Made by a program: the position numbers and the translations under genes. This document shows positions 2 through 21,996 of a stretch of 64,000 nucleotides of DNA, piece after piece. Below the pieces are notes generated by a model. It saw only the letters and a program-made list of their open reading frames with translations, ran no database searches and was not told the origin of the DNA. This stretch comes from a virus (Duplodnaviria; Caudoviricetes): positions 1 to 64,000 of the IMG/VR virus record IMGVR_UViG_2936514734_000001; one strand, written 5' to 3'. Each line of letters starts with the position of its first letter. The stretch's first letter is position 1.

Positions 2-2488
2 CAAATAGCTGAACAAAACTATGCACTTGCTCAACAAGCAAAAGGGGTAGAAGCTGCACCTATTTATCAATTGCATAAATTGAAAAACATGACTATTGAG
101 CAAAATCTATCTGATATGGAACAAGTAGATACAATAGCTGGTTCCGCTCTTGATGCGTTCTATAGTGCATCTGAATTAGGAGGTATCTATGGTTTCTTAA
201 CCAAAACTGGTATTGGATATGAAGAATCATGGCGTGGTACAACACTTGCACCTTCAAGCTTGATGTCTTCTCCAAGTCGTGCGTTTTGGGATATGAACCT
301 TGGTGGTCTTGGAGGTTCATTATCAGAGATTGGTCGTCGTTATGTTCCTCGTGACCCTAACAAAGATTATTATTCTCCAATTCGAAATACAATGCCTGAT
401 TGGTTGCCTGGTCTAGGAGAACAAGAAGACTTTTTGCATGGTGACCCTTACACTAAAATTCAAAAAGGTGAAATAAGACTCCCAGGTAAAGCATATGAAA
501 AACTCTATAAGCTTCATCCAGATGGTACAGGTACAGGTGAGTTTGCAAACTACGGTGTTTTTGACCGCTTCCGTATTTTAGCTGATGTTGCGCCAGATAG
601 TGAACAATACAGTGTAGCTAAACACCAAGTTACATTGTTGAGACAAGCTGGTGGCATGACAGAGGATATGGAAAAAGAATTTGACGAAATCACAGATCAA
701 GTTCATAACAAGCAAGATACAATGCGTTGGTATGATAAGAAATTCTCTCATGCTGAAATTAAAAAAGAGACAGTTACTATCTCTAAAGTTATTGATGCAA
801 ATACCTTCATGGTTAGAGAGTATGATACACCAATCAAACTTGCAGGTGTTAAGCTGACTAAGAAAGACAACCAAGATGTTATTGATTGGCTTGGACAGTA
901 TTTAAAAGTAGGCGAAAAGATTAAAATCGGAGTTGCTGAAGATCCGGGTGCAAGGTACAACAATGACACTTATAACACGGTATCTGCTGTTGTTTATGCA
1001 AATAAAAATGAGGATGGCCGCTTCTGGTTTGAATCTAATAAAGGTCAATCACTGAATGCTCTTATTGCTAATCGTACATGGAATAAACCAGTTCAGATAA
1101 AAGATGATGGAAGTCCAACTTCAACTGCTGCTCTTTATTCTAATGATATGATTACAGTCGGTAAGTATATGGAGACATTAACACACGATATCTTACCTAA
1201 AGTACCTTTTGTCGGTATCTTAGCGGATAAGTTCTTACAAGTCCGAACTCCTGTTGAAAGCTATGAACGTGAACAGGTTTATGGTTCAGATTGGAGACCT
1301 TGGCAACATCCATATGAAGGATGGATTAAGCCAATGGTCAATACTGTTGCTTCTCAAAACCCATTAGTAGCGGGGGCTGAGATGGCCGCTATTGGTCATA
1401 TGTTTGGTCGAGGGACTAAGATGACAGGTTTAGGACGTGTTGCAGGATTCTTTATTGGTGCAGGTTTCGCTTCTCTGAGAGTGCTTGATGAACAAGCGGA
1501 AAAGGTAGTGCCGGGTGCTGATGGTGTATGGTTGCCTAAAGAACGTGAAAAAGAGCGTGAAATAAACGAGTACTTTGACCGTTTAAAATACGTTAAATAT
1601 CGAGGCCTATATGAGCAAGCACGAAAAATGGCAATGCAGGAAGAAGGCATTGATGTTGAAGAATTTTTCGATGCTGCCGCTGAAAAAGGCGAAAAAAATA
1701 AAGGTCTTAAGCGTTTCTTAACAGAGAAGAAAAGAATGTTGTCCTTCGCTAAAAAAATGGGTTATGGTGATACCGACGCCGTTAAGTCGCAAATTAGTGA
1801 ACTCTCCGACGGATTAGATGAAATCTCTTCCGCAAAAGAAGCGTATCAAGCAGGCAAATATACGTCACTTGCTATTAAATATCGTAAGGAGTATGAAGGT
1901 ACTTTCTATGGTATGGGTGAGTATGGTGCTTCTGATCGTACCGCGTTAATGAGAGCCTTAACACCAAAAGAGCGAGAATACATTCCTCGTTTCCTTGAAA
2001 CTACAGATAGCAAGGAACGCCAAGAGATTCTTAAATATGTTCCAAAAGACATTAAGAGAATCTTACAAGGTAGCTGGGGATTGAAGGTAGATAAACAAGA
2101 AAACATTAAAGCATATTTTGATGATCATTATCTACCAAGTGAAAATTGGGGTGGTTGGTCTGCAGGTGTAAACCTTGATGATATTAAAATTAAGGTAATG
2201 AAGAAAGAGGGCGTTAACCCTACTCAATCTGGTTATTGGGGTAAAGACCAAGCTAGAGCTGAAAAGTCAGGGCAGAAAGCAATTCCTATTCATTCGCTTA
2301 GCGGAAAAATCGATACCAATCGCTTAAATGAAGTGTTAGCAGGCATGGGACTATCTGATGTAGATGTCCAATTAACTACTTCTTATGGAGATGGACCGGG
2401 TGGAATTAATACCTCCATCAACATTTTAAATGATGTACACAATGAAATTGTTGATACAATCAATGACAGTGTACACTCACTTTTCTAA
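2..2488 (+). CDS. 5'-truncated large virion/ejected protein with a degenerate thermonuclease (SNase-like) domain and a glycine-rich hydrophobic segment
   Basis: Frame is open from position 2 (QIAEQNYALAQQ...), so the TTG at 71 is internal. SNase-like pattern TISKVIDANTFMV...IKLAGVKL...DTYNTVSAVVY lacks the DGDT, R and DxPE residues. Hydrophobic segment LGRVAGFFIGAGFASL. Confidence 0.6.
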   Translation, partial: QIAEQNYALAQQAKGVEAAPIYQLHKLKNMTIEQNLSDMEQVDTIAGSALDAFYSASELGGIYGFLTKTGIGYEESWRGTTLAPSSLMSSPSRAFWDMNLGGLGGSLSEIGRRYVPRDPNKDYYSPIRNTMPDWLPGLGEQEDFLHGDPYTKIQKGEIRLPGKAYEKLYKLHPDGTGTGEFANYGVFDRFRILADVAPDSEQYSVAKHQVTLLRQAGGMTEDMEKEFDEITDQVHNKQDTMRWYDKKFSHAEIKKETVTISKVIDANTFMVREYDTPIKLAGVKLTKKDNQDVIDWLGQYLKVGEKIKIGVAEDPGARYNNDTYNTVSAVVYANKNEDGRFWFESNKGQSLNALIANRTWNKPVQIKDDGSPTSTAALYSNDMITVGKYMETLTHDILPKVPFVGILADKFLQVRTPVESYEREQVYGSDWRPWQHPYEGWIKPMVNTVASQNPLVAGAEMAAIGHMFGRGTKMTGLGRVAGFFIGAGFASLRVLDEQAEKVVPGADGVWLPKEREKEREINEYFDRLKYVKYRGLYEQARKMAMQEEGIDVEEFFDAAAEKGEKNKGLKRFLTEKKRMLSFAKKMGYGDTDAVKSQISELSDGLDEISSAKEAYQAGKYTSLAIKYRKEYEGTFYGMGEYGASDRTALMRALTPKEREYIPRFLETTDSKERQEILKYVPKDIKRILQGSWGLKVDKQENIKAYFDDHYLPSENWGGWSAGVNLDDIKIKVMKKEGVNPTQSGYWGKDQARAEKSGQKAIPIHSLSGKIDTNRLNEVLAGMGLSDVDVQLTTSYGDGPGGINTSINILNDVHNEIVDTINDSVHSLF

Positions 2489-2496
2489 ACACATAA

Positions 2497-2535
2497 AACG
2501 GCGCTCATTCTTTTTAGGATGGCGTCGTTATTTTT
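2497..2535 (+). terminator. Intrinsic terminator-like hairpin
   Basis: aacggcgc...gcgtcgtt stem followed by attttt, just after a stop codon. Confidence 0.55.
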
Positions 2536-2553
2536 ATAGGAGGGTATTTATAT

Positions 2554-5500
2554 ATGGATGAAATCAAACGCGTACCTCTGAAAAACAGAAACTTATTGCC
2601 TGTATTCGAATCAGCTGATGGTTCCGGTACTATTAAAATGTTAAATGAACAAGAAAGAACCGCTGCTAAACAAAGACAAGAAGCGGTTTCTCAAACATAC
2701 AATGCACTTATAGAATCACACCGAATTAAGTCTATGGGGATATGGGAATCAGCACGTACTCCAAATGGCTTTAATGTAAATGCTCAACAAGCTTTAGATC
2801 CCTTTATGAAATTAAAGGCAAAAGAGAATGTGAGCTTCTTTGATATTGAAGCAATTGGTACTCCTGAGCATATGAGAAAAGGCACAAAAGGTCTTGATTT
2901 ATTTGCTATTACCGAATTGTCTTTCGGTGGAACGCAATTTACGGGTAAGGACTTTGTTAGCAATAAAGGCCAAATCATGTCATTAGCGATTGCACCAGGA
3001 AAACATGAGTATGAACGGTTAAAATCACAAATTAATCAGTTGAAGCAAAATCCTATGATGTCTATTTCTCAAGATATGCACCGTACACTACTTGATCTTT
3101 CTAAGTACTCAGATGATAAAAAGTTTCAGCGTTTCACAAAGACAGGTGAAAGACTACTTCAAGATGGTAAAGAATATACTCTTTTGTCTGGACATGCTCG
3201 TGTTCCGGCTGCTAATACGGCTTTTACACGAAATACAGTTGAAGAAATTGAAGCAGGGTTAAATAACCTATATAAGCATGGAACTAAGCTCAAGGATGCC
3301 CTCTCTATCTTCAAAACACATATTGAATCTACAGATTCAAAATTAGGTGGATACAATATTCATCATTATGATCTTCCAGCTATACTGGGATCAATAAAGG
3401 ATAAGGATACTAAAGACTTCTTTACTGCCGCTTCTAAAAACTCACTAGATTTTTATCACGGATACTCCGCTACTGCTAAAGACCCTTATTCTCTAACGGG
3501 TGCGAGTTTACGGCAAGAACATATCCACCAAAGTTTATTGAATAAAAAAGTTATTAAGGGAGCTCAAAACAAATACCTTTATCACTTGGCCAAAGATGAT
3601 ATTCAAGCGAATATTGATATTGCTGGATTCACTTACAATCAAATTAATAAGTTTATTGAAGAAGATAAAAAATCTCCTGCAGATTATGCTCTTACCCCAT
3701 CTACCTTAAAAACCGATATTCTTCAACAAGGACAGGAATTGTTCTCTTTTCAAAGTGGTTTCTTTGATAAAGATAAACATAAGTACAATTTAGTTGCTAC
3801 AGCACAAGAAGATGGTAAATTAAAGCCACGTTGGTCAAACCTCAACACATCTCTTCCTTCAAATGAAAGCTTCATCATTAATGAATTCCTAAAAGATGTA
3901 CCTCTTCCTGGAACTGATAAAACAGGCTATGGAGTAAGACTTGATTCTAAGGATATTAAAGGGAAAAGTCTTCTATTGATGTCGGAAACTCAAGAAGATT
4001 TAGCACAGCAAATACATGGCTCATTTGTTCCATTAAATGATGAAATCGGAAAGGGACTTAGAGATTTAAAAGTAAAACACGATGCATCATTCCGTGAGTA
4101 TGAAAGAATGTTCGACAGTAATGGCTGGAAGAAAATGAATGAGTACTATGGATACCTAAATAGTGCTGGTGAAGTAGGGAAAGATTTTGACTGGACTAAA
4201 CATGTACTAGCGAATGGTGGTACAGAAGAACTTGCAATTAAGTTTCCTCACATGGTTGAAAGATTAAAAGGAGAACGACAAATTTGGCAAAAGGTGCAGG
4301 AGCAATTAGCTCAATCCAGATTAGATGACAACCAAAAATCTATTGCTCTACGACACTTTAAAAACAAATTTGATCAACTAGGTGATAACAAAGCAGAAGT
4401 ATCTGCCGAAGGAAATAAGTTCTTTAACTTTAAGTTTGGTAAAAGCGATGAAACTATTTTTAACGCTAAAAATACAGACCAAATAAAGAATGCTTTCAGA
4501 AGCTATATCCGAGGAAGCAAACGTGGAGATCGTGTAGGAGAACCTGAAAAATCTTACAAGATAGCTCGCATTGATGAATTAAGTAATTTTGTTCTTGATA
4601 ACTTTGGCTTTGAAAAAGATAGCGTAGAGGCCAATAAGGTCAGAGCTATTGCAGATGGAATGAAAAGTGAGGTTTATTCAGGTAATAAAATTGAAACTGC
4701 TTTAACAAGTATCTCTAACTTTGTTCGTGATCATGTGGAGTCAAAAGGAAAAAGTAGCTTTGTACGTGAGGTAACAAATGAAGTAACTAGTAATCGCTTA
4801 TCAGCCATTTCAAAGCTTCAAGAGAAGTTACCGGAAGTACTACAGGAAAGTATTCAGCATTCACAATCGTACTCCAAAGCTAAAGAAGCTATTAATGGAA
4901 ATTCGAAATTAAAGAACTTCCTTCAACAGCAAGATAAATACATCAAGCAATTGTTCGCTAAAAACTTTGGTGCACATGGCATGAATGATCCTGAAAGCAT
5001 TCATAAAGCAAGTCGTATGGCTTCTAAGTATGAAGATTTAGTAGGGAAAATCATGTCTGCCTATAGTAATGATTTTAATACTCAAATCCGTTTCACTGAA
5101 GAAGGAAAACCTTTATTCGTTTTAGCAGATAAGAAAAGCGGAATGGATTTAAGTCAAATTAAGACATATGAAGAATTAGTTAATAATGCAAAAGTGGCCG
5201 CTATTGAGTTACCACATTTCGATGAAGACTTAAAAGTAAGATATGGTGGAAATCGAAAAGCAGCGGTTATCCGTTCAGGTGTTAGTAATTCTAAGGGTGT
5301 TTATCATAGCACTACCGTTACCGATGCATTAAATATGATTCTTGATTACTCAAAAAAAGCCAAAGAACTAGCTGAGATTGCAGAAGGAACTGGACGAAAA
5401 AATCAGTTTGTTGAAATCAGACAAGGGCTTCGTTATAGAGTTGGTAGACAAGTAGACCCTGTTCCTACAGATGCTAACCGTAAGTTAAGCTTCGACGATA

Positions 5501-8500
5501 AAGAAATGTTTGAACTAAAATCTGCAATTAGTGGAGAAGTTCGTTCAAGTAAATGGGATATTACAGGCTATGCTGAATCTTGGTATCGTCAAAATTCTAA
5601 GCGTTTAGGTTTACATGCGACAGCAGATGTAATTGCTGAAAACGCAAAAGAAAAAGGTATCTCTTTCTATGAAGCAATGGGGCCACGAGCTCAAGGTTAC
5701 GCAACTAGCGGTGGATTACTTGAACATGCTAAAAACATGTCTGGATTAAAAGGAAGTATGTTTGGTATCAACAACCGTTCTGCTTCTAGAGGATATGTTG
5801 GTACGGCATTAACTGATGCTCGTACTTATATGGCATTAGGTAACTACTATTCTGATTCTGTAGAGAACCCGCACAAAACGGTAAACTACAGAGCTGTTGA
5901 TAAAGAATATGCTGACAAAGCTTTGAGCAAAGCGGGGAAAAATCAATCGTTCCGTACAAATAACAGCTTTGTTTCATCTGCTGCTTATAAGGCATTGAAA
6001 GATGGCGAAGAGATACGTGGTATCACAATGCAAACTGGTTACATGACCGATGAAGAGATTGCTCTTAAATTAAAAGATGCAAACAATATTTCTCGCTATA
6101 AACAGATGATTGATAAAGCTGAACGTAAAAATCAACTTTCTCCAAAAGAAGCTAAGCAAATGAAAAAAGCTTTAGATATGGGGATGCTTTCTACAAGTGA
6201 AGGTCTTGCATTTATGGATCATACCTTATTGAAAGCCTTTGATGGTATGGATGAAGTGCGTGTCAATATGAACGCTGACGATGTTAGATTCAATAATTCT
6301 ATTGAAGCAGCTATTGAAAAAGAAGCTGAGAAACAAGGTCTTGGTAATGGGCTCTGGAAAGAAAAAGGAGTCACTTTTGAAAAGCCTGTAAAAATTGATG
6401 TATCAGACATGATGGATGAAAAGGATACGTTGACTCTAGGTAAGTACTGGAACAACAACATCGAGAACACCATTGTGGATGAAAAACGTTTCCGTAAGGG
6501 AGATAAAGTTCATATTCTTGGGTTCAGTGCAGATGATATTGCTAAGAAATCACTAATTCTTGGCAGGGAACGTAAGACAGGTCAAGGTTTCAAAGCGGTT
6601 ACTGAAGGTGGATTCCGTGCTACTATGACACCTATGCTCAGTGAGATCATGAGTGATCTTTATGGTGTAGAAGGAGTAGAGCAAGTTATTTCCCATCTTG
6701 GAGAGAAAAAAGGAGCTACAGATTTACCTGCTTTAATCCGTGGTTACGATACTCAAATTCGTCAACAATTTAGCGGTACAGCATCTAAGAAGATTGAAGG
6801 TTATTCTTCTGAAGAAGAAGCATTAGCCGCTTTCTATAAAGATGTTGAAGATATGGTTGGTATTAAAACAACTAACAGAGAAGGGCAATATGTTGTAGAT
6901 TCAAACTTTGGTTTAGATGGAAAGCAAATTAAGTACGAAGATCGCCAACGACTTTCTGAAAAATGGAAAGGCGAATTGGGTCTAAACCGTGAAGTATTTG
7001 CCGACATTACAATGGCTCACGATGTATGGAATCGTCAAGGTGGAAAAGATCGAGGCAAAATCACTGTTAAAGAGATTGACATGTTGGACCGCTCATATAT
7101 ACGTACTGGTTTGTATGCTCCAGGTGAAACCTCTGCTCATGCAAGCTTTATGCGTGATATGGTATATGGTTCTCAGACTACTCCAGAAATAAAAGCTCAG
7201 AAAAAAGTCTTCTCTGAAATGGTTAAAGCTGTTGGGAATTATGAAGATGGCTGGACACCAAAAGCAGGAGATGCTGTTATTGATTATACTACTGATGGTA
7301 TGGGATTAATGACAGATGTGAACGCACAATTAAAAGACGGTGTGCTTCATGTGAGTAAGGACTCTTTCCAGCCTGTTCCTCAAAAATCAGGTCATAATCA
7401 AACCTTCACAGTTGGTGATTATAACAAAACCATTATTAATGCAGGAGCTATGGAAGTTAAGCTTGAAGCTGGTGGAGAAGGTAAGAAGCTTCAGAACTAC
7501 CTTATGGAGCACAAAGGAACAGCTTACTTAAAGTTGCCTGAATTCGCTGCTAATCAATATGTTCCTCTTCTTGATACTGAATCAATGAAACTGCCTGGTG
7601 ACGTAAACTTTGTTGAGAAAACAGAGTTCTTGGATACTCTTAAAGGTCATTATGCTAATATCTCTCGCAAAACAGAAGAATACAATAATCTTTTTGTGAA
7701 TGATAAATTCTCTGAAGCTCAAGTCGCTGAACGTCGTGGAGTACTAGAGAAAGAAATCAATCGAGAAGTATCTAATCTTATTACTACTTTAGGTGATTCT
7801 ACATCTAAAGAAGGAATGTCTAAGATTATGGCAAGACGTCTGCCAATGTCTTCTCAGTATCAATTTGGAAGCGTAAACCCGGCTTTAGCCTATCAGAAAG
7901 ATGATGGCAAGTGGGTAAATAACGGCATTGTAAAAGAAGGCGAAATCTACATGAATGAAAAAGATATTCGTAACTTAGTAGGCGATAAAGCTGAAAACAT
8001 TGCGAAGTCTTGGAATGTAGATGTTGATAACATCAAGGCGTCTGATGTCGGATTAAAACAGAGAAAAAATGAAAATAATGAAGCCTTTAAAAATCGTGTA
8101 ACTACAGAGTATGTAATGAAAAACTGGAACCAAAATGACACATTCTCTACTACGATTCGTTATCCATCAATTGACGTGGGAACCACTCAAGCTTTAAAAG
8201 TAAAAATGAGTGATGCTGTTGGCGAAGGACAAGTAGTTGGTTTACGAGGTATGGCTGAACGTATCTCTGGTGACTTTGATGGAGATAATCTAGCTGTCTT
8301 CCTTACTCATTATGGAATTGATGACGAGAAACAGCGTGAAGCTGTATTGAAAGATGTAACAAAATTGCATGATTTCGATAAAGCAAAGAACGAATTAGCG
8401 GCTGATGTCATTATGAACAAAATGGAGAAAGACTTCCGGACTAACCTTTCTGAAGCAACTGGACTTGATGTAAACCACAAAGACATCTCAAAAGTAACAG

Positions 8501-9915
8501 ACCGCTTCTTCTCAGGTGAAAATATTGCAAAAGACCTGACACTAGGTAATTTACATGGTTCACAGGCAGAAGAAACAATCCAAAAAGCCCTCTCTAGTAG
8601 CGGAGCATATGAAGATTGGGGTACTGTTAAAAATGGTAAGTTTGGTTTAGGTGAAGCTGAGCATGAAAAATCCATTTTAGCTCGTGCTACTTCAACCACT
8701 ATCGGTAGTGTAGATAATACTCGTATGAGAATGTCAGCTGCATTCATGACAATGGCTGAAACAAAATATAAGTTATTTAATGATGCAGAAGGTCCAGCTA
8801 AGTACACGAAACAAGACTATGTACGAGAAACCGGTATGGTTGATGAATTCTTGCGTGAGTATTCTCAGAAATCTATTTCCGCTAAAAAAGTAGAAGGTTC
8901 TGACTCTACTGCTGAAGACATCATGAAGGATCTTTACAAGATGATTGATGATGTTAATAATCCGAGCAACAAACTGGATTATGATACAGCGGCCGCTCAA
9001 CTTGTTGATCGAGGACTATTCAAAAATGAGCCTTTCTTAGAAATTGGAAAAGGGGAAGTCTACAAAGGTTCAAGTCATGAGTTCATTAAGAAATCCCTAT
9101 CTATCTTAGGTGGAGCTGAAGAAGCTTACTCAGAAATGGGTATCAAGGGTTATAGAGAATCTAGCTTACTTGTAGCTGCTTCTCAAGGTATTGGGTTTCA
9201 CAACTTCTCTCACATGGTTAAAACAGGTGAACATATTCCTGGCATGGATGCTGTTAATGAGATTAGTAATATTGCTAAAGAATACGGCAATGACAGAATG
9301 GCTAAACATCAAGAATTCTTTGAGAAAACAGTTGAGCGTGTTCATGAACGTAGAGCAGCTAACGTATCTGGTCGATTAGAAGATGCAAGTAGCTCTTTAG
9401 AAATCATGAATAGTAACAAGCATGTAGAGCCTAAAATCCTAGAGAATAGTGCAATGCCTATCCATAAAACAATACGTGACCAAATGGATGATTCATTTGC
9501 AGAATTAGCTACAGCTGCAAAACATACCTTCCATGGTTCTGCTGCTAGTTTAGCAGGGGTAGGTGCATTAGGTTTTGGAGCAATATGGGCAACTAATGCT
9601 TTAACAAAGAACGCACCAACACCAGAAGGATTGCAGGAAATGGCTCCTGTAAATCCAGAGGTGCTAGGAGCTCCTACAGCCCGCGTAACGCCGAATCAAA
9701 ACGGTGAATATATAAATATATCTATTAGTGCAAAAGCCGCTCAGCGCCTAGATCATAACGATTTGGCAGCCATGATTAACAATGAAGTCATGAGCATGTC
9801 GAATGTTAAGATGAACACCAGTGTAAATGTAAATGACAATTCTAAAAAGATTGATCGAAACTGGTTGGAGGGAGCTGTTGCAAATGCAATGAATAATGGT
9901 TATGCATATAAATAG
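2554..9915 (+). CDS. Single-polypeptide two-barrel RNA polymerase (beta+beta'-like) with N-terminal DEDDh 3'-5' exonuclease; probable virion RNA polymerase
   Basis: TIRYPSI...QA...ISGDFDGDNLAV aligns with beta' NRAPTL...QA...NADFDGDQMAV; GFKAVTEGGFRA aligns with beta GDKMAGRHGNKG; exonuclease motifs FFDIE, GYNIHHYD and HLAKDD; RBS aggaggg. Confidence 0.85.
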   Translation: MDEIKRVPLKNRNLLPVFESADGSGTIKMLNEQERTAAKQRQEAVSQTYNALIESHRIKSMGIWESARTPNGFNVNAQQALDPFMKLKAKENVSFFDIEAIGTPEHMRKGTKGLDLFAITELSFGGTQFTGKDFVSNKGQIMSLAIAPGKHEYERLKSQINQLKQNPMMSISQDMHRTLLDLSKYSDDKKFQRFTKTGERLLQDGKEYTLLSGHARVPAANTAFTRNTVEEIEAGLNNLYKHGTKLKDALSIFKTHIESTDSKLGGYNIHHYDLPAILGSIKDKDTKDFFTAASKNSLDFYHGYSATAKDPYSLTGASLRQEHIHQSLLNKKVIKGAQNKYLYHLAKDDIQANIDIAGFTYNQINKFIEEDKKSPADYALTPSTLKTDILQQGQELFSFQSGFFDKDKHKYNLVATAQEDGKLKPRWSNLNTSLPSNESFIINEFLKDVPLPGTDKTGYGVRLDSKDIKGKSLLLMSETQEDLAQQIHGSFVPLNDEIGKGLRDLKVKHDASFREYERMFDSNGWKKMNEYYGYLNSAGEVGKDFDWTKHVLANGGTEELAIKFPHMVERLKGERQIWQKVQEQLAQSRLDDNQKSIALRHFKNKFDQLGDNKAEVSAEGNKFFNFKFGKSDETIFNAKNTDQIKNAFRSYIRGSKRGDRVGEPEKSYKIARIDELSNFVLDNFGFEKDSVEANKVRAIADGMKSEVYSGNKIETALTSISNFVRDHVESKGKSSFVREVTNEVTSNRLSAISKLQEKLPEVLQESIQHSQSYSKAKEAINGNSKLKNFLQQQDKYIKQLFAKNFGAHGMNDPESIHKASRMASKYEDLVGKIMSAYSNDFNTQIRFTEEGKPLFVLADKKSGMDLSQIKTYEELVNNAKVAAIELPHFDEDLKVRYGGNRKAAVIRSGVSNSKGVYHSTTVTDALNMILDYSKKAKELAEIAEGTGRKNQFVEIRQGLRYRVGRQVDPVPTDANRKLSFDDKEMFELKSAISGEVRSSKWDITGYAESWYRQNSKRLGLHATADVIAENAKEKGISFYEAMGPRAQGYATSGGLLEHAKNMSGLKGSMFGINNRSASRGYVGTALTDARTYMALGNYYSDSVENPHKTVNYRAVDKEYADKALSKAGKNQSFRTNNSFVSSAAYKALKDGEEIRGITMQTGYMTDEEIALKLKDANNISRYKQMIDKAERKNQLSPKEAKQMKKALDMGMLSTSEGLAFMDHTLLKAFDGMDEVRVNMNADDVRFNNSIEAAIEKEAEKQGLGNGLWKEKGVTFEKPVKIDVSDMMDEKDTLTLGKYWNNNIENTIVDEKRFRKGDKVHILGFSADDIAKKSLILGRERKTGQGFKAVTEGGFRATMTPMLSEIMSDLYGVEGVEQVISHLGEKKGATDLPALIRGYDTQIRQQFSGTASKKIEGYSSEEEALAAFYKDVEDMVGIKTTNREGQYVVDSNFGLDGKQIKYEDRQRLSEKWKGELGLNREVFADITMAHDVWNRQGGKDRGKITVKEIDMLDRSYIRTGLYAPGETSAHASFMRDMVYGSQTTPEIKAQKKVFSEMVKAVGNYEDGWTPKAGDAVIDYTTDGMGLMTDVNAQLKDGVLHVSKDSFQPVPQKSGHNQTFTVGDYNKTIINAGAMEVKLEAGGEGKKLQNYLMEHKGTAYLKLPEFAANQYVPLLDTESMKLPGDVNFVEKTEFLDTLKGHYANISRKTEEYNNLFVNDKFSEAQVAERRGVLEKEINREVSNLITTLGDSTSKEGMSKIMARRLPMSSQYQFGSVNPALAYQKDDGKWVNNGIVKEGEIYMNEKDIRNLVGDKAENIAKSWNVDVDNIKASDVGLKQRKNENNEAFKNRVTTEYVMKNWNQNDTFSTTIRYPSIDVGTTQALKVKMSDAVGEGQVVGLRGMAERISGDFDGDNLAVFLTHYGIDDEKQREAVLKDVTKLHDFDKAKNELAADVIMNKMEKDFRTNLSEATGLDVNHKDISKVTDRFFSGENIAKDLTLGNLHGSQAEETIQKALSSSGAYEDWGTVKNGKFGLGEAEHEKSILARATSTTIGSVDNTRMRMSAAFMTMAETKYKLFNDAEGPAKYTKQDYVRETGMVDEFLREYSQKSISAKKVEGSDSTAEDIMKDLYKMIDDVNNPSNKLDYDTAAAQLVDRGLFKNEPFLEIGKGEVYKGSSHEFIKKSLSILGGAEEAYSEMGIKGYRESSLLVAASQGIGFHNFSHMVKTGEHIPGMDAVNEISNIAKEYGNDRMAKHQEFFEKTVERVHERRAANVSGRLEDASSSLEIMNSNKHVEPKILENSAMPIHKTIRDQMDDSFAELATAAKHTFHGSAASLAGVGALGFGAIWATNALTKNAPTPEGLQEMAPVNPEVLGAPTARVTPNQNGEYINISISAKAAQRLDHNDLAAMINNEVMSMSNVKMNTSVNVNDNSKKIDRNWLEGAVANAMNNGYAYK

Positions 9916-9917
9916 AC

Positions 9918-9955
9918 AGAAGAGAGTTAACTTTTTGTTAGCTCTTTTCTTTTAT
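9918..9955 (+). terminator. Intrinsic terminator-like hairpin
   Basis: agaagagagttaac-ttttt-gttagctcttttct followed by ttt. Confidence 0.65.
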
Positions 9956-9975
9956 CAGAAAAAAGAGGTGAGCAC

Positions 9976-12900
9976 ATGAAAGAGAAAATTTTAATTACCT
10001 CTCTAGCAAGAGTGTCAAAAAACACTCCTTGGCGTGTTGGTATTTATACAAATGATAACTATACATTCTTTAATGTGGGCGAAAAAGGAAATGTTGCAAT
10101 GAGCCCCCGTTTTAATATGTTTCTTGATGCAGTAGAAAAGAAGGTAACTCGATACCCTGTAGATGTTAGTTTTCATCCAATCAAGGACAATAGGGAGATG
10201 GAGATTACTAAAATTCGAGATCAAATTGTATATGTTGATTGTGGGTTTACAGCAAATCGGTTAATTCCTAATGCTCGTTTCTATTACGATAAAGAAGTAT
10301 TTTCAAATCCGCTTGCTATTAAACAGCAAAAGACGCAGGATACAAGTGGAATGTTTTCTGTAATGGATGTTTCAGAAAATATTGCTTCTACTGCCTTACA
10401 ATACATTGCTGTAGGACGTGTAGAGCAAGTAACTGACGGCGATACCATAGATGTAACTTTGCTCAAAACGTCTGATTTCTTATCCTCTCGTTTTGATACT
10501 AATGAAAAAGTTACGATAAGATTTAATGGTGTAGATACACCTGAAAAATATCAAGAAGGTGCAGAAGAGTATAAAGACCCTAAAAATACAAAGTTCGGTA
10601 AACTCTACGGTGTAACAATGCAAGACATGTACACTGTCGGAGGAGAAGCGTATGAGTATACGAAAAAGCTTCTAGGATGGAATAGCTCCAACAAACCGCT
10701 TGTTATCCTAAACTTTGATCGTCAAAAAGATGGGGATGACCCAATGATGGATGCAGGATATGGACGTTATGTAGCGGACGTATATGCAACAAGTGAAAAG
10801 AATGCTGAAATCGCTATGGAGAAAGTTGAACAAGGTAAGTCTTTTGTACACGTTCCAAAAACACTATTAACAACAAAATCTAAATCATTTCCTCAAGTTC
10901 CTCTTGGTTTATTTCAATACGAATTCGCTTATGACGGATCAAGCATTCTTAATCCTTTCGATTGGGTATCAGAACTAGGATTGAAAGGATTTGATCCAGG
11001 CAATCAGTATACTCCTGATAATCTACAATCTGATACTGATCCTGATGTTAGTTCGGGAGATGTACAAGTTTATGATACAAACTTAAACACTGATACTATT
11101 AATTTCTCTTCTACAGATGGTCCAACCTCTAATAACTTGGACTTCTTTGAGCCATACGATGATCGTCTTGGCGATTTCACAAAGGGAATTAAGAGCGTAG
11201 CGGATTTAAAGAAGCATTCAAAAGTTCGTATCGGTGACGTTATCTTAACTATTCCTCCAACTTCAATTGAAGTAAATAAAACTTCTAATATCTCTAAAGT
11301 AAAAACACTTCGTACTAAATCTTCTGTTTTAGTTAACCGTGGTCAAACACTAACTACACTTAGCCTAAATCTGTACTTCCATGATTTAGAATCCATTAAT
11401 GGTACTCAATATCCTTGGAGAAAGGATTATAAAAAAGGTGAAAAGCAGAAACACTTCTTCGTTGATGGATTACGTCCTCTACTTGCACAATTCACTAAAA
11501 CACCATTTGTACCTATTGATAACTATTATATTAATGATGTCTTAGGTATTCGTGATGTAGCTTTAATGGATATCGAAGTAACAACAGTGCCTAATTTCCC
11601 TGAATCCCTAACTGCTACTCTTACACTAGTTGAGTTTAACTGTGAAGCATATCTAATGGATCAAGGAACGTTAGGTGATTCTATAAACTATCCGCTAATG
11701 CGTTGGTTTTACAATCAAGCAATGGCTAACCGTGGAGAGAAATACCGCTACTTTAAAGGCTTAGATGCACCTATAAAAAGTGACATTAGCTTTACGCTTG
11801 CAGATGAAGAGTTTTTATCTAAACGTAAAGAAGCTATTCAGTATATTAAAAAAGCTGATTCACCTGAAAAAGTACGTGTAGAAATGAAAACTAAGAATAC
11901 TTCTTATAAAGCTAAGAAAGAAGATGAAAAGGTTCTCAGTAAGATTGTTTCACAGTATGAGGTGTACTCCAAAGCGAACATAAAAAAATATACGGTTATC
12001 GACTATTTCAACAAACCTGGATTAAACGGTCCGTCTAATAGTATTGCCGGTCAACTAATAGAGAAATATGGTATCAAAAAAGAGACAGCAGATAATGCAA
12101 TTCTTGAAGGAATTGAACTGTTTACCGAAATGTATGATGGTAAATATAAAAACGAAACAACTGTATTGAAAAATCAAAATATCTTCTTACCATATGAATC
12201 TCGTTTGTACTACAAGTCTCGTTTTGATTGGACTGGATTAGAAGGATTCTTTACTAACTATGATGAAGAGCCTCCTGTAGATTATTCAGAAGAGCCATAT
12301 AAAGGACAAGAGTCTAAAGGATTGGTGTTATTCGATAAGCTGACCGACATTGACAACCAAGCTAAACTTGAGAAGAAATTTAAAAAATACTATGACTCTG
12401 GTAAAGGCCGCTTTATGATTCCTGCAAGCTCTGATGCAATGAAGACAATTAAAGAAGTCGCGAACTCTGCTAAAGATATGATGGATAGTGTTGATGCATA
12501 CGAGGAAGAGTTTAATGAGATTCTAGGGATTATTGATGCAAGTGAAGCTGGTATCCCAATGAAAGAATTTGAAATCTCAGGTAGCATGATTCCTATTTCA
12601 CTTAATGCTCGATTCTCGAATGAATACAGTATCTCTCATGTTCAATCGGGAGAAGCAGCTACTTTGCAATATATGGGTGGAGGCGATCCTTACGTTGACC
12701 TTATTTTAGAAGTTGACGAAGATGCAGCTAAAGATATTAACAGACTTGTTGCTATTTCTGATTATTATGCAAAGACCTACAACCAAGGGATTACTAATGG
12801 TTATATAGGTATTCAAAATGACTTAGCTCAATTGTTCGGCATTCGATATATCATGTTTGAAAACTTATCCATCAATACAGTGCCTAATTTCCCTGACCGC

Positions 12901-15900
12901 TACCAAATTATGATTCGTGCTATTGGGTTTGACAAAACACAACGTCAACGTGAAGAATTAACTGCTTTACCAGGAAACACTGATCATATGGACATTGATA
13001 TGCTTACAGAGAATAAAGGTGCATTTGCAAGTGATAGAATGATTGAATCTCGTCTTCACCAGTTAGAAGTTTATCCAGATTTAGAGCTTCCTACTTATAA
13101 CCAATTGAATAAGGACTTGGCTGAATTTGATGCAGGTTCTATTAAAGAATATGTAAATCTAAACGGTGGTACATATGTAGATCCTGACTTTTATTTTTCT
13201 ACTGTAAGTACCTTCAGAAAAATGGTTGAAGAAGAATACACAAGCGAACATCGATTAAATATGTTTGATGCAACTGGTGTAGCTGCATACACAAGTAGTA
13301 CAGATGCAGAGCAGGTTTTCAATACAACAGATACAGACTGGAAAAAGCTTCAGGATATGCAAACTACTGAAGGCGTTGAACCTATTGGATGGGTGTTTAG
13401 ATGGGGAGAAGGACAGCAGGAGACTCAGGAAACAGCAACCGCTTCTACAGGTACTCTTGCAGCTGAACAGGGAGGTACTTTGTCAGCGCAAAACCCTGAT
13501 GTGCAATCATTCTTAACCGCACAAGAAAATGGGGCACCTACATATAATAAGTTTCCTACTCTTGAAGAATGGAATAAGTTATTCCCTAAAAACGATTATG
13601 TCTATAATCTCTATAGTTCACAGCCTGGTGCTGATGAAACTCTTATCTATCAAGAGCTTAGTTATCAAATTGATAAATACTTTAAGAAATACTATTCAGC
13701 TCCAAACTTTATTAAGGAGTGTCGTGGTGACTTAAAGGATGCTGACAAGTCTAAGAAGCGAGTTTCTTATTCAGTTCCTAATGATTTTTATGCTATGTAT
13801 TTTGATTATCAGCGACGTACTCAACGGTCGTTTAAAGAAGTAGCAAAAATTGATGAACTAACAAAGGATAAAAAGATTACAAGACCAAGTGAAACTGATA
13901 GTGTAGATGCAGCGGATTTCCGTAAGACCGATAAGAAAATCACAAAAGAACGTTTTATGACTCTTTTCAAAGCTTTCTTAGATAAAATGAGCGGTTGGCA
14001 ACATTACAAAGGAAAAGGTCCTTTGGTTAGCAAAACAGGGCGCGTTGGGTTAGCTCAGGTTGATATTACAGGTAAAGACATGACTGTTGATGAAGTAAAA
14101 CGACTAATGTACAACTGGAGATACAACCTTGAAGTAGCGGTGAAACAATTGTTAGGACACTTCAAAAAAGCTAAAAAGCTTAATGATGATTGTACTAACT
14201 TTGAAGTTTTTTGTCGTCCTTGGGATGCAATGTTTGCATTATATGAAAAACCGGACGCTAAGCTTCTTCGTTCATCAGATGTAGAAGATAGTGACTTTGC
14301 TAGTGGTATCATGAGTCGATTCACTGCATATGCAACAAAACCTTTTAATACATTCAGTGGTTTCAATGAAGAAGTGTACAAGCAGTTTGCTGGTCTATCA
14401 ATGGAAGAACAGACATCTGTAGGTGGAGGAAACGAGACTGATTACGTTAACTCGCTATTAGAGCTTGAATACTATGATCAATCAGTTCTTAAAAAAGCAG
14501 GTCTAACAATTAAGTCTGATAAGAAAAACATCAAAAAAGCTATGAAGAAATATCTAAGTGAACAAACCAAAGAGACACTTTATGAAATCTATCAAAAACA
14601 CTTGAAATTCCTGTATGAACTAGGTAAATCGGATAGTACTGCAGAGAAGGTTATAGATGGTGTTTCATGGCTTAACCCGGCAAACCTAGCGGGTGGAGTT
14701 GCACATAAGGTAACTGATAAAGCTACTGATTTTCTTTTCTCAGACAAAAAAGATAAGAATGGATATGAGTACAGCAAAGAGATTATCGAAAAAGGTAGTA
14801 AGCTTTACGAGTCAATTAGAAACCTCGATAAAACTGCTGAAAGCTCTCAAGCATCAACAGATACTCGTTTGTTTAATGATGTTGATCCTCATACCATTTA
14901 TCAAGAAATGTTCTACGACTTGAGATACCATGATCAAAGAGGACGTATGTTACGTGCATTCCCTGGATTCCAAATGTTTATCATTCAAGAGGGTGACTAT
15001 TTTGGTAAGTATAAGTTCTGGGACAACATGTACGGGTTCAATGCAATCCAAAGTATTGACGTACACCGTTCTCGTAAAATAGCAGCAGATACAGCGGTTA
15101 TTTCAATGACGAATGTATACTCAAACTTAACAACTCGTCGTACCGATGTTGACTATGTTGACCGTCAGTTAAAATGGTGGGACAACTATATATGGAATGA
15201 GATTCCTAAAGATCTTATTGATAAGAAGGAAAATGAAATCCATAAGAACATCTACCTCGAAACAGGTGCGAGAATACACCTTCGTATGGGATATGGTGCA
15301 AACGCAAGCTCACTACCAGTTGTCTTTAATGGAACAATCACTGAACTTGAAATAGGTGATTTAATTGATATCGTTGCTCAAGGTGATGGAGTCGAACTAG
15401 GAAACGTTATTTCTGGTGACCCTGACGATGATAACGACGGTCTATTCAATGTAACTGAACCTAGAGACTTAATTTGTAGCTTATTAAGCTCAAAAGGTAG
15501 CTGGTTTAAAGACTTCATGAATAATGTTTCAGATGGTCAATTGTTTAGACAAAACCCTCTAGGTATTATGCATTTCGGTCAACCTTTTGACACAAATGAT
15601 TCCACAGCTGCAAAACCTCTTGGAAATCTTCTATGGTACAACGATGAATATGGTGAAGTAGCCCAAAATATTTACTCTTCTAATGGATCACCAACCTTTT
15701 CTCAATGGCTACACCCGAATGGAGAAAGAAATGATATTTTCCATGATTTTAGTTGGAAACGTCTATGGGATAATAAGTTCAAAATTCTTAACCCAGGTGA
15801 TGAAAAGAACGTTGTTGTTAAGTTCTACAACAATACTGTATGGGACATCATTCAAACAATAGCATATACATCTCCTGACTATATTGCCGCTGTCATGCCT

Positions 15901-17307
15901 TTTGAATTACGCTCAACACTGTTTTTCGGAAAACCATATTGGAGAGCCGCTTATCAATATGATTCTCGATATGAGTTCGATGCTGCTAATAAGACATGGG
16001 CAAGACATCTAGTAAAAGAAGCTAGAAGACCATATATGCAACACAAGTTCTACACTTCAGCCTATGACATCATCGAAAACAATATTAGAGCTTCTGAAGA
16101 AAATATCTATACAAACGTAATTGTTAACTATGACGGTAAACAAACTCCTGTATTGTATGCTGATGCGGATATCCGTTATGACAAGCAAAAAACTCGTGTA
16201 GTAGAAGCGGATATTGTTGCTAAGTTTGCTGATTATTACACCTCTGAAGTAGTCGCTACTTACTACGGCAACTCTGCTCTTCGTGATAATCTAAAAGACA
16301 TGTACAAAGGTAATTTACTTGTTATGGGTGACCCAACAGTTAAGCCTCATGACATGATGTACATCGGTGATGAAATCAATGATTTACAAGGAAACTGCCT
16401 AGTGAAATCTGTAACCCACCATTTTAGTTTAGAGACTGGATTTGTTACATCAATTGAACCGGATTTACTTATTGTCAATGATGACCAAGTTATCCTTGAA
16501 CTAGGCAAGTGGTATTACAGTTTTGCAAGTTCGATAGGGGCTACACTGGCAATGCGTTATGCTGCTAAGAAAGCAACCCGTAACCTAGTGAATTGGTTAA
16601 TGAAGCCTAATGGTGTACCTGTAGGTGTTGGGAAATGGGTATCTACAAAAGGTTTAAGACACACAGTGAGTCTAGCAAGCGACGGCAGTAAAGATTTTCA
16701 AGACATCTTGAAAACAATTGATCAAATCATTGCTTCTGGTGATAAAGATGTAAGTGCATTGCAGACCAAGTTAGCAGGTCAATTTGATACAGCGGCGCAA
16801 AATCTACAAAAAGCAACGGGCAAAGCGGGTATTATAAAAGATACATCTAGAAAGGCTGTTCTTAAATCAGGTGCATCCTTTATGAGAACTCTCGGTGGTA
16901 CTTCAAATATTGCTAAAGTAGGTTTGAGTGCAACGAAAATAGTAAGAGGAGTAGCTTCAATAACTCCTGTTGGCTTCATTGTTAACTCTGCGTTATGGGT
17001 AGGAAGCGAAATGTTATTTGAACATTATCGTCGATACAAAGAAAACCTACAGTGTGTAATCTGTATTCCTCTGACATATCGAGGACAAGAGCTAACAGCT
17101 GGTATCAACAATCATGCAGGTATGGTTTATGGAGACAATCCGGGCCGTTACGATAGATTGTTTGACGCTACATTTGGTTCAGATGATGGTGAAGCTGAAG
17201 ATATCTTTGGTAACTCATTATTCGAACTCGCTAACTTCTTTAGTGGATCAGGTGGAGTATACTCTGACCCTGAGAAGACAAAAGAATTAAATAGTCTTGG
17301 TAAATAA
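9976..17307 (+). CDS. Giant baseplate hub fusion: thermonuclease + two tube-like domains + degenerate SLT + gp27/gpD-like hub
   Basis: VTDGDTIDV, IRFNGVDTPE and YGRYVADVY (SNase); ARIHLRMGYG...VFNGTITE and GDPTVKPHD...VKSVTHHFS...GFVTSI (hub); lies upstream of spike and wedge genes. Confidence 0.75.
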   Translation: MKEKILITSLARVSKNTPWRVGIYTNDNYTFFNVGEKGNVAMSPRFNMFLDAVEKKVTRYPVDVSFHPIKDNREMEITKIRDQIVYVDCGFTANRLIPNARFYYDKEVFSNPLAIKQQKTQDTSGMFSVMDVSENIASTALQYIAVGRVEQVTDGDTIDVTLLKTSDFLSSRFDTNEKVTIRFNGVDTPEKYQEGAEEYKDPKNTKFGKLYGVTMQDMYTVGGEAYEYTKKLLGWNSSNKPLVILNFDRQKDGDDPMMDAGYGRYVADVYATSEKNAEIAMEKVEQGKSFVHVPKTLLTTKSKSFPQVPLGLFQYEFAYDGSSILNPFDWVSELGLKGFDPGNQYTPDNLQSDTDPDVSSGDVQVYDTNLNTDTINFSSTDGPTSNNLDFFEPYDDRLGDFTKGIKSVADLKKHSKVRIGDVILTIPPTSIEVNKTSNISKVKTLRTKSSVLVNRGQTLTTLSLNLYFHDLESINGTQYPWRKDYKKGEKQKHFFVDGLRPLLAQFTKTPFVPIDNYYINDVLGIRDVALMDIEVTTVPNFPESLTATLTLVEFNCEAYLMDQGTLGDSINYPLMRWFYNQAMANRGEKYRYFKGLDAPIKSDISFTLADEEFLSKRKEAIQYIKKADSPEKVRVEMKTKNTSYKAKKEDEKVLSKIVSQYEVYSKANIKKYTVIDYFNKPGLNGPSNSIAGQLIEKYGIKKETADNAILEGIELFTEMYDGKYKNETTVLKNQNIFLPYESRLYYKSRFDWTGLEGFFTNYDEEPPVDYSEEPYKGQESKGLVLFDKLTDIDNQAKLEKKFKKYYDSGKGRFMIPASSDAMKTIKEVANSAKDMMDSVDAYEEEFNEILGIIDASEAGIPMKEFEISGSMIPISLNARFSNEYSISHVQSGEAATLQYMGGGDPYVDLILEVDEDAAKDINRLVAISDYYAKTYNQGITNGYIGIQNDLAQLFGIRYIMFENLSINTVPNFPDRYQIMIRAIGFDKTQRQREELTALPGNTDHMDIDMLTENKGAFASDRMIESRLHQLEVYPDLELPTYNQLNKDLAEFDAGSIKEYVNLNGGTYVDPDFYFSTVSTFRKMVEEEYTSEHRLNMFDATGVAAYTSSTDAEQVFNTTDTDWKKLQDMQTTEGVEPIGWVFRWGEGQQETQETATASTGTLAAEQGGTLSAQNPDVQSFLTAQENGAPTYNKFPTLEEWNKLFPKNDYVYNLYSSQPGADETLIYQELSYQIDKYFKKYYSAPNFIKECRGDLKDADKSKKRVSYSVPNDFYAMYFDYQRRTQRSFKEVAKIDELTKDKKITRPSETDSVDAADFRKTDKKITKERFMTLFKAFLDKMSGWQHYKGKGPLVSKTGRVGLAQVDITGKDMTVDEVKRLMYNWRYNLEVAVKQLLGHFKKAKKLNDDCTNFEVFCRPWDAMFALYEKPDAKLLRSSDVEDSDFASGIMSRFTAYATKPFNTFSGFNEEVYKQFAGLSMEEQTSVGGGNETDYVNSLLELEYYDQSVLKKAGLTIKSDKKNIKKAMKKYLSEQTKETLYEIYQKHLKFLYELGKSDSTAEKVIDGVSWLNPANLAGGVAHKVTDKATDFLFSDKKDKNGYEYSKEIIEKGSKLYESIRNLDKTAESSQASTDTRLFNDVDPHTIYQEMFYDLRYHDQRGRMLRAFPGFQMFIIQEGDYFGKYKFWDNMYGFNAIQSIDVHRSRKIAADTAVISMTNVYSNLTTRRTDVDYVDRQLKWWDNYIWNEIPKDLIDKKENEIHKNIYLETGARIHLRMGYGANASSLPVVFNGTITELEIGDLIDIVAQGDGVELGNVISGDPDDDNDGLFNVTEPRDLICSLLSSKGSWFKDFMNNVSDGQLFRQNPLGIMHFGQPFDTNDSTAAKPLGNLLWYNDEYGEVAQNIYSSNGSPTFSQWLHPNGERNDIFHDFSWKRLWDNKFKILNPGDEKNVVVKFYNNTVWDIIQTIAYTSPDYIAAVMPFELRSTLFFGKPYWRAAYQYDSRYEFDAANKTWARHLVKEARRPYMQHKFYTSAYDIIENNIRASEENIYTNVIVNYDGKQTPVLYADADIRYDKQKTRVVEADIVAKFADYYTSEVVATYYGNSALRDNLKDMYKGNLLVMGDPTVKPHDMMYIGDEINDLQGNCLVKSVTHHFSLETGFVTSIEPDLLIVNDDQVILELGKWYYSFASSIGATLAMRYAAKKATRNLVNWLMKPNGVPVGVGKWVSTKGLRHTVSLASDGSKDFQDILKTIDQIIASGDKDVSALQTKLAGQFDTAAQNLQKATGKAGIIKDTSRKAVLKSGASFMRTLGGTSNIAKVGLSATKIVRGVASITPVGFIVNSALWVGSEMLFEHYRRYKENLQCVICIPLTYRGQELTAGINNHAGMVYGDNPGRYDRLFDATFGSDDGEAEDIFGNSLFELANFFSGSGGVYSDPEKTKELNSLGK

Positions 17308-21507: not shown

Positions 21508-21996
21508 ATGAAAGTAGATTTTCGTTTTTCTTCTGAAGGAGATTTAGAATTAGGTTCTCCAAGCTTTAATGATTTAGGAGAGTTACTGTATGTTAATCCT
21601 CTTGGGGAAGTTTCCACTGATAGTTCGGAAGGTGAATTAATTAGAGACATACCGCTACAAGTCTCATATCTAAGTGAAAAGCAAGTTATTATCAATCGTC
21701 TAAGAACTGATAACCCTGATTGGTTGTTGCATCCTGAAATAGGAGCGAATTTATCTGACTTAGTTGGGCTACCAAATACAAGAGCCACAGGCGAAAAAGG
21801 AAGAGAACTTATTGAAAACAGTTTAACTAGTGATGGATTTATTAATATCAGTGACCTAACAGTGAGACCTGTGCCGATAAGTTCTAGTGAGATTTTATTT
21901 CATATAACTGTCAAAAGAAATACAACAGATTTAGTAATGCCTGTACTCTTTGATTTATCACATGGGTTACTAACTGAATACGAGGTGAACAACTAA
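21508..21996 (+). CDS. gp25/GpW-like baseplate wedge (sheath initiator)
   Basis: QVIINRLRTDNPDWLLHPEIGANL motif; size and position. Confidence 0.8.
   Translation: MKVDFRFSSEGDLELGSPSFNDLGELLYVNPLGEVSTDSSEGELIRDIPLQVSYLSEKQVIINRLRTDNPDWLLHPEIGANLSDLVGLPNTRATGEKGRELIENSLTSDGFINISDLTVRPVPISSSEILFHITVKRNTTDLVMPVLFDLSHGLLTEYEVNN

Follow-up and report, generated by a model that had tools for sequence, protein, structure and literature searches.

Virion RNA polymerases that enter the cell through a phage tail have their best-described example in gp96 of phage P23-45 (also found in P74-26, G20c, and TSP4), a tape-measure-fused RNA polymerase of the two-barrel type (Chaban et al. 2024, PMC10770324; PDB 8H2M/8H2N). 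The proposal for this protein is that it is ejected, associates with the membrane, and, at the pore through which the DNA enters, transcribes the first genes (PMC10770324). For the tail genes studied here, a described relative is phage 0305phi8-36, in which the gp146 slot was assigned as the tape measure by Hardies et al. 2007, and gp147 was placed in the T4 gp27/P2 gpD hub family, with a homolog in BtI1 that carries an N-terminal staphylococcal nuclease (SNase) domain (PMC2147016). The present analysis concerns the first 64 kb (64,000 nucleotides; the window) of the 239,374-bp IMG/VR virus record IMGVR_UViG_2936514734_000001, which begins with three giant genes on the plus strand: ORF1 (2..2488; open at its 5' end and comprising the C-terminal 828 of 2168 aa), ORF2 (2554..9915; 2453 aa), which is the second giant and lies in the slot of 0305phi8-36 gp146, and ORF3 (9976..17307; 2443 aa), a member of the family of 0305phi8-36 gp147. 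Because an exonuclease and an RNA polymerase core of the cellular type sit together in ORF2, a giant tail gene, we suggest, by analogy with P23-45 gp96, that this phage probably delivers its own polymerase through its tail.

The polymerase core of ORF2 is a single-chain, two-barrel one (6571..8523, plus strand; aa ~1340-1990), consisting of a beta-like barrel, a segment resembling the N-terminal part of beta', and a beta' barrel with the metal-binding motif DFDGD (8272..8286, plus strand; aa 1907-1911). An exhaustive profile search retrieved 44 representative proteins, nearly all of ~2400 aa, and in the alignment of 41 of these the sole invariant residues were R1869, P1871, D1907, D1909, G1910, D1911, and Y1920. 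The first two belong to an NRYPTI-type motif (ORF2 reads IRYPSI...DFDGD at aa 1868-1911), and K1347, G1353, and R1355 in the first barrel were nearly invariant in the family. We take the invariant stretch to be the beta' signature NRxPT...NADFDGD, with a spacing similar to that in Escherichia coli beta'. When the profile was compared with the PDB, the best match was to the beta' piece of the phiKZ non-virion polymerase (E 0.006), on the NRxPT...DxDGD stretch, followed by AR9 beta' and African swine fever virus (ASFV) RPB1 with marginal E-values.

Structural comparison gave a consistent picture. An AlphaFold2 model of ORF2 aa 1292-2060 (pLDDT 76.8) had beta'/Rpb1 chains exclusively as its top Foldseek matches (E ~2e-6), and VIA-align superposed it on Rpb1 and archaeal A', both of the beta'/Rpb1 type, with Z 11.5 and 236-248 residues aligned. 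A second barrel, of the beta type, is present in the model and is predicted to face the beta'-type barrel; both barrels were covered in the alignment with QDE-1 (Z 10.5, root mean square deviation 3.2 A, 149 residues aligned across model residues 55..654), as well as in those with P74-26 gp62 (Z 8.8), P23-45 gp96 (Z 7.6), RDR2 (Z 7.0), and crAss phi14:2 gp66 (Z 6.8). Between the two barrels lies a segment that superposes on the clamp-side, N-terminal part of beta'/Rpb1. The leading BFVD matches were an ORF2-family member (probably WH1 gp095), a "minor tail protein" from an uncultured siphovirus, and a protein of phage ME3, with viral polymerase subunits after them.

On the same chain, toward the N terminus, lies a DEDDh (DnaQ-like) 3'-5' exonuclease domain (2731..3813, plus strand; aa ~60-420). 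D97 and E99 (in FFDIEAIG), D273 (in GYNIHHYD), and H344 and D349 (in HLAKDD) form the full DEDDh set of ExoI DxE, ExoII D, and ExoIII HxxxxD, and all five were unchanged in an alignment of 34 relatives. In the PDB, the family profile matched DEDDh exonucleases, with a best E of 1.7e-5, and also ExoI, DnaQ, and the RB69 polymerase exonuclease domain, and a Pfam search with four distant ORF2 homologs yielded just a weak RNase_H_2 match, which also fell on the exonuclease. The Atlas offered no lead for the middle part of ORF2 (aa 430-1290; score 0.81). The exonuclease could serve in proofreading or in end processing. The initial annotation, which was made from the DNA alone, had assigned an exonuclease and an RNA polymerase to ORF2, and both assignments are borne out by the invariant catalytic residues and by the profile and fold matches.

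The C-terminal module of ORF2 (9391..9912, plus strand) is common to 0305phi8-36 gp146 and to a polymerase-less variant in JGI contig L012. Over its last ~170 aa, ORF2 aligns to the C terminus of gp146 with a score of 82, versus 34 +/- 5 for shuffled sequences; the module ends in a W(L/F)E...GY motif and holds a Gly/Ala-rich hydrophobic segment. The cargo ahead of it varies: in 0305phi8-36, gp146 lacks DxDGD and any match to the polymerase profile and shows weak exonuclease-like motifs in the middle of the protein only, the second giant of L012 has neither exonuclease nor polymerase, and the second giants of Enterococcus- and Virgibacillus-type contigs have both. Because the cargo differs among relatives and the C-terminal module stays, ORF2 looks like a tape-measure-like scaffold with exchangeable cargo, as far as can be judged from sequence. 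Two further kinds of variant were seen. The proteins P0011, P0016, and P0051, from Bacillus mycoides-type contigs, are ~2083-aa forms of ORF2 with a ~130-residue deletion ahead of the active site and with NFSRD or NFSGD where DFDGD would stand, and are probably decaying copies. In phage ME3, the second-giant slot is occupied by ME3_36 (L015:5948-10759; 1603 aa), which is without DxDGD; the BFVD model of an uncharacterized ME3 protein, which may or may not be ME3_36, fits the ORF2 polymerase model (E 3.9e-8). This phage, whose host is Gram-negative, may have a polymerase-like module that has degenerated.

The baseplate hub protein is ORF3. It matched 0305phi8-36 ORF147 (1e-40) and the ME3 hub (2e-11) in tblastn searches and occupies the hub gene position, ahead of the lysins and Baseplate_J. 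Its conserved core (14833..16515, plus strand; aa ~1620-2180) is of the Mu gp44/P2 gpD/T4 gp27 type by Atlas features and homology, scoring 0.95 in the Atlas to Mu gp44/gpD hub clusters and to no others; a profile of the core found no match in the PDB or Pfam. Nearer the N terminus, ORF3 carries an SNase/thermonuclease domain (10393..10875, plus strand; aa ~140-300) with DGDT, R..GVDTPE at aa 187-190, and GR. In ten sequences, down to 28% identity, DGDT, IRFNGVDTPE, and GRY were invariant, and we judged them as the equivalent of SNase D21, R35, D40, T41, E43, and R87. The domain profile matched 90 SNase entries in the PDB and no other fold, and the domain matched the endonuclease family phrog_452 at 1.5e-9. 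The single ORF3 sequence scored 16.5 bits against PF00565, below the gathering cut-off of 21; close homologs are already called "thermonuclease family protein" by NCBI. Elsewhere the hub N terminus differs. In the Bacillus phages KLEB27-3 and WH1 the Ca-ligand Asp is replaced by Gln (ATQTPE and GVQAPE), in the Enterococcus type (L013) the site is degenerate, and the slot holds a lysozyme-like domain in L014, LysM/M23 in L012, and transglycosylase/NlpC/M23 in 0305phi8-36. Since the active site is altered in KLEB27-3, WH1, and the Enterococcus type, the sequences suggest that the hub nuclease may be active in some clades only.

ORF1 is the first giant after two tail-chaperone paralogs and is homologous to 0305phi8-36 gp145 (E 1.6e-99); its family comprises >200 protein clusters, all of ~1900-2200 aa. 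A highly conserved block, RRYxPRDPNK..NPIRNTMPDWLPG..GDPY..GExRLPG.. (284..706, plus strand), which matches no known family, directly precedes an OB-fold domain resembling SNase (734..1150, plus strand) from which the catalytic residues have been lost. By motif pattern, DANT stands in place of DGDT and AGVKLTKKD in place of VDTPE, so that IDANTF replaces IDGDT and IKLAGVKLTKKD replaces R....VDTPE; this loss is common to ~120 homologs, and DTPE was found in none, including two labeled "thermonuclease family" by JGI. The sequence-based searches missed the domain: its profile found no relevant match in the PDB, hhalign with the ORF3 SNase profile gave a probability of 1.3%, PF00565 was touched by just 5 of 68 ORF1 members (E >= 0.023), the single ORF1 and ORF2 proteins had no match in Pfam or PHROGs, and phmmer against the PDB was likewise empty. 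A fold model was therefore needed for the assignment. In the AlphaFold2 model of P0001:90-480 (pLDDT 72 overall and 84-93 within the SNase-like domain), residues 156-294 matched staphylococcal nuclease alone among the top 50 Foldseek hits (E 2.5e-4; TMt ~0.6). VIA aligned the domain with SNase 1sta and Tudor-SN at Z 9.6, and its first 15 rows were all SNase or extended-Tudor folds, the next row having Z 4.9. The dead fold is ancient and conserved and has therefore been selected for something other than catalysis. An intact SNase in ORF3 and a degenerate one in ORF1 had both been proposed from the sequence of the window, and both hold up, the former through its complete, invariant catalytic set and the latter through the fold model together with the catalytic loss in ~120 homologs.

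Each of the three families has a moderately hydrophobic segment at a fixed place (Kyte-Doolittle ~0.8-1.6). The Gly/Ala/Ser fraction of these segments is mostly ~0.4-0.6 in the ORF1 and ORF2 families and ~0.2-0.4 in ORF3. In the ORF1 family they lie near the N terminus and at aa ~1815, the latter region of ORF1 including a conserved, Gly/Ala-rich segment of the glycine-zipper type (1349..1486, plus strand); the ORF2 segment (9541-9603, plus strand) lies ~120 aa before the C terminus, and that of ORF3 (16939..17001, plus strand) is C-terminal, at aa ~2322. The glycine-rich hydrophobic segments noted initially in all three proteins are thus real and conserved in position within each family. Tape measure proteins from which the entry channel is made, such as T5 pb2, typically have glycine-zipper segments of this kind. 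Hydrophobic tape-measure segments have also been discussed as an entry-channel feature in the study of P23-45 (PMC10770324).

The gene neighborhood places these proteins in a tail. ORF1 is split by the ends of the record, its N-terminal 1339 aa lying at G000:C1:235356-239374 (= L003:15957-19975). Rejoining the final 4019 nt of the record (2 nt left over) with nt 1 of the window restores a protein of 2168 aa in frame, and an identical 2168-aa protein exists in another record (P0063). As the two ends join in frame inside ORF1, the sequence behaves as a circular or circularly permuted assembly; the record is labeled linear. The far end of the record, upstream of ORF1, encodes the major capsid protein, sheath proteins, three paralogous tube proteins, and, directly before ORF1 in the chaperone position, two small proteins that are paralogs of each other. 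Downstream of ORF3 are an SLT lytic transglycosylase gene (17401..18879) and an M23 plus NlpC/P60 lysin gene (18863..20557), both on the plus strand, and, following the lysin genes, a Baseplate_J gene (21996..22796). The order is thus sheath, three tube genes, two chaperones, ORF1, ORF2, ORF3, wall lysins, and baseplate, and these flanking genes identify ORF1-ORF2-ORF3 as the portion of a contractile-tail module that makes up the tail interior and the hub. Because the context is that of a myovirus tail module, we rejected a crAss-like or N4-like identity for the window.

The nearest deposited phages are the Bacillus phages vB_BauM_KLEB27-3, vB_BceM_WH1, and Edson; 0305phi8-36, Moorella phage MTATph1, and Acinetobacter phage ME3 are more distant. 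In all contigs long enough, three tube genes and two chaperones are followed by genes of ~2000, ~2450, and ~2300-2450 aa and a lysin, and the three genes still stand in this order where the ORF2 cores are no more than ~20-25% identical, and also in relatives of the Enterococcus, Virgibacillus, and Acinetobacter types. The initial annotation had staked its proposal on this synteny, and the three genes were syntenic in every relative examined. Three long open reading frames conserved over hundreds of protein clusters are not a product of chance. Homologs are labeled "structural protein," "virion structural protein," "putative baseplate protein," "hypothetical tape measure protein," or "baseplate hub protein"; for ORF2, the record annotations are "structural protein" for KLEB27-3 gp034 and "virion structural protein" for WH1 gp095. 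In 0305phi8-36, gp145 and gp146 were detected in virions by mass spectrometry. Two interruptions of the ORF1 family were observed in passing. The KLEB27-3 homolog is split into gp031 (ORF1 aa 5-1475) and gp033 (aa 1498-2168), between which lies gp032 (L001:12354-12989), a 211-aa Cys-rich protein resembling a homing-endonuclease or intron insertion, and the family member P0147 (2472 aa) bears PF14528 (LAGLIDADG), which suggests an intein.

Our data give directly the identities of the domains, the catalytic residues that were kept or lost, the order of the genes, and the homology to virion proteins. The explanation that we favor, and hold to be somewhat better than an even bet as a whole, is that of a jumbo phage or phage-plasmid with a contractile tail, a Bacillaceae host, and a place in the 0305phi8-36 lineage, in which a polymerase is stored in the tail and ejected. 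ORF1 and ORF2 would be tape-measure-like proteins with glycine-zipper segments, ORF3 is the baseplate hub protein, and ORF2 carries its DEDDh exonuclease and complete single-chain two-barrel polymerase core as cargo. By analogy with P23-45 gp96, ORF2 would be built into the tail and then expelled upon sheath contraction, its hydrophobic C-terminal module would insert into the membrane, and its polymerase would transcribe the first-entering DNA without a sigma factor, as has been proposed for gp96. The hub SNase would be a separate, exchangeable tip enzyme that cuts nucleic acid met at entry, and the dead SNase fold of ORF1 would be an ancient binding or structural module. Presence in the tail of this phage, ejection, membrane insertion, early-gene transcription, and any nuclease activity are the steps that we infer. 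Of the membrane-associated, co-ejected complex put forward in the initial annotation, the delivery of the polymerase by the tail is retained as plausible, on the analogy with gp96, the homology to virion proteins, and the position in the tail lumen and hub; the idea of one joint machine is not supported.

Several observations weigh against this explanation. The presence of ORF2 in virions and its exit from them are predictions for this phage, made from homologs and from gp96, and a folded polymerase of ~800 aa does not obviously fit into the lumen of a tail tube. Two giants occupy the tape-measure slot, and it is ORF1 that abuts the chaperones, while Hardies et al. chose the slot of ORF2. HMMER found no link from ORF2 to gp96, QDE-1, or YonO, and the likeness to single-chain polymerases is therefore one of fold only. 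In P0011 and P0016, the DFDGD motif is replaced by NFSRD or NFSGD. Finally, the genome holds a 1461-aa gene (G000:C1:206169-210554, minus strand; L004) with an ADHDGD motif and a sub-threshold match of 17 bits to PF05183 (RdRP/YonO type), which is possibly a second, non-virion, later-acting polymerase; it has no homolog in KLEB27-3, WH1, 0305phi8-36, or ME3, and Pfam hmmscan, PHROGs, the PDB, and tblastn against phages gave it no support.

Presence and absence of such polymerases in relatives follow a complementary pattern. Phage 0305phi8-36 (EF583821.1) encodes a PF05183 polymerase (69 bits) as a separate protein and lacks one in gp146, and KLEB27-3 and WH1 (OM634661.1 and LC597490.1) have the tail-module polymerase and no PF05183 match. 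This suggests that relatives either fuse a polymerase to a tail protein or keep a stand-alone one, which would amount to a natural experiment on virion versus non-virion polymerases. No sigma-70 region 2 was found anywhere in the genome. A k-mer search for a phage-specific promoter turned up only nine copies of the hairpin GGGGCGTTAGCCCC, which lie beside A/T runs in a single orientation (G000:C1 104113-203406) and are probably intrinsic terminators of minus-strand genes.

The strongest competitor to tail storage and ejection of the polymerase, which we consider appreciably less probable yet worth serious attention, is that the enzyme domains are unrelated additions to exchangeable tail-protein slots and form no joint machine. 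The hub SNase might then remove nucleic acid that is outside the cell or attached to its wall, the exonuclease might act on DNA ends by trimming them, and the polymerase, instead of expressing early genes, might draw the DNA in or synthesize primers. The variable content of the hub N-terminal slot, from intact, Gln-variant, and degenerate SNase to lysozyme-like and other wall hydrolase domains, agrees with this, as does the retention of the C-terminal module in gp146, which lacks the polymerase, and in L012, which lacks both enzymes; the same kind of domain swapping, in "hyperplastic" regions, was described by Hardies et al. 2007 (PMC2147016). Against it, exonuclease and polymerase occur together in all 30+ full-length members of the ORF2 family with every catalytic residue kept, and no member of the ORF1 family is without the dead SNase. 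Such retention points to strong selection on the parts, from which cooperation between the proteins does not follow.

It is unlikely, in our estimate, that the three proteins make up a tail-delivered entry machine in which ORF1 and ORF2 would exit the lumen together and form a membrane pore, the ORF1 fold would grip the DNA, ORF2, whose exonuclease would proofread or process ends, would transcribe the genome and thereby help to pull it in, and the hub SNase would destroy competing nucleic acid. If true, such a three-protein machine would be the contractile-tail counterpart of the strategies of N4, crAss, and P23-45. Slightly more doubtful still is the full version of the initial proposal, a single membrane-bound, co-ejected complex in which the dead OB-fold of ORF1 would provide DNA binding or promoter specificity for the sigma-less ORF2 polymerase and the hub SNase would degrade host DNA. 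Strict synteny, the conserved hydrophobic segments in all three proteins, and a genome without a sigma factor gene are compatible with it, and dead SNase folds do bind elsewhere, as in Tudor-SN and extended Tudor domains, to which the ORF1 domain is structurally most similar. The dead SNase is, however, equally conserved where the second giant is without a polymerase (in 0305phi8-36 gp145 and in L012) and therefore does not exist solely to serve one, and P23-45 gp96 and crAss gp66 recognize promoters without such a partner (PMC10770324); a role of ORF1 as promoter-specificity partner has no support. An obligate joining of three enzymes is not supported, given the second giants that lack the polymerase (0305phi8-36) or both polymerase and exonuclease (L012) and the hubs whose SNase is altered or replaced. 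Very improbable is a noncatalytic relic that serves as bulk or plug in the tail, for although the ME3 model fits the fold while ME3_36 lacks DxDGD, and P0011 and P0016 have altered motifs, relics do not retain metal ligands, and the main family, at identities of ~20%, shows little or no variation in DxDGD, NRxPT, and the K/G/R positions of the first barrel.

Storage of the ORF2 polymerase in the tail would extend the tail-polymerase idea to contractile-tailed jumbo phages of Firmicutes, with a layout different from that of the Thermus phages. To our knowledge, a tail-carried polymerase has been shown experimentally for one Thermus siphovirus lineage only. The available supplementary text of PMC10770324, in which viral two-barrel polymerases are tabulated, mentions none of KLEB27-3, WH1, and 0305phi8-36; a 2026 jumbo phage review names no enzyme of this sort beyond the phiKZ-type phages, and our literature search found no paper on KLEB27-3 or WH1. 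The ORF2-type protein occurs in isolated, culturable phages (KLEB27-3, WH1, and Edson), whose records call it merely "structural" or "hypothetical." Storage of the polymerase in the tail, its exit, and its first transcripts are therefore testable in Bacillus.

Among known systems, the locus as a whole resembles that of 0305phi8-36 and its relatives BtI1 and BwK1, which have the same gp145-gp146-gp147 block after a two-gene chaperone (PMC2147016). There, gp145 corresponds to ORF1, gp147 to ORF3, and the C-terminal module of gp146 to that of ORF2, and the BtI1 hub also has an N-terminal SNase; the differences are that gp146 is without a polymerase, a stand-alone PF05183 protein being present instead, and that the 0305phi8-36 hub has wall hydrolases rather than SNase. 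For the dead domain of ORF1, the Tudor-SN and extended-Tudor SN-like domains offer a parallel, as SNase folds that lack the catalytic set and act as binding scaffolds (Z 8.7-9.6); these are eukaryotic RNA-silencing proteins, and the likeness is claimed at the level of the fold only. For the polymerase, crAss phi14:2 gp66 and N4 gp50 resemble ORF2 in that a polymerase lies within a virion protein of >2000 aa and is injected to start transcription, and gp66 is likewise a single-chain two-barrel enzyme. Both, however, are podovirus capsid cargo and not products of tail tube or hub genes, neither has an exonuclease domain, and N4 gp50 is T7-like rather than two-barrel.

The nearest known parallel is P23-45 gp96, a giant protein of the tail module that likewise combines a DFDGD two-barrel polymerase with hydrophobic membrane segments, its fold matching ORF2 over both barrels. 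Our exhaustive ORF2 profile search retrieved only the ~2400-aa ORF2 family and detected no sequence homology to gp96, and the two proteins differ in several respects. P23-45 is a siphovirus with a noncontractile tail of 800 nm, whereas the tail of the phage studied here is contractile. In gp96, the polymerase is N-terminal and has been described as flat and clampless; in ORF2, it lies in the C-terminal half behind the DEDDh exonuclease, and its inter-barrel segment superposes on the clamp-side N terminus of beta'/Rpb1. A metallopeptidase is on the same chain in gp96, whereas the M23 peptidase is encoded by a separate gene here, and here a second giant, ORF1, shares the slot. What is new relative to P23-45 is thus the contractile tail, the Firmicute host, the fusion of exonuclease and polymerase, and the position of the polymerase in the second of two giants.

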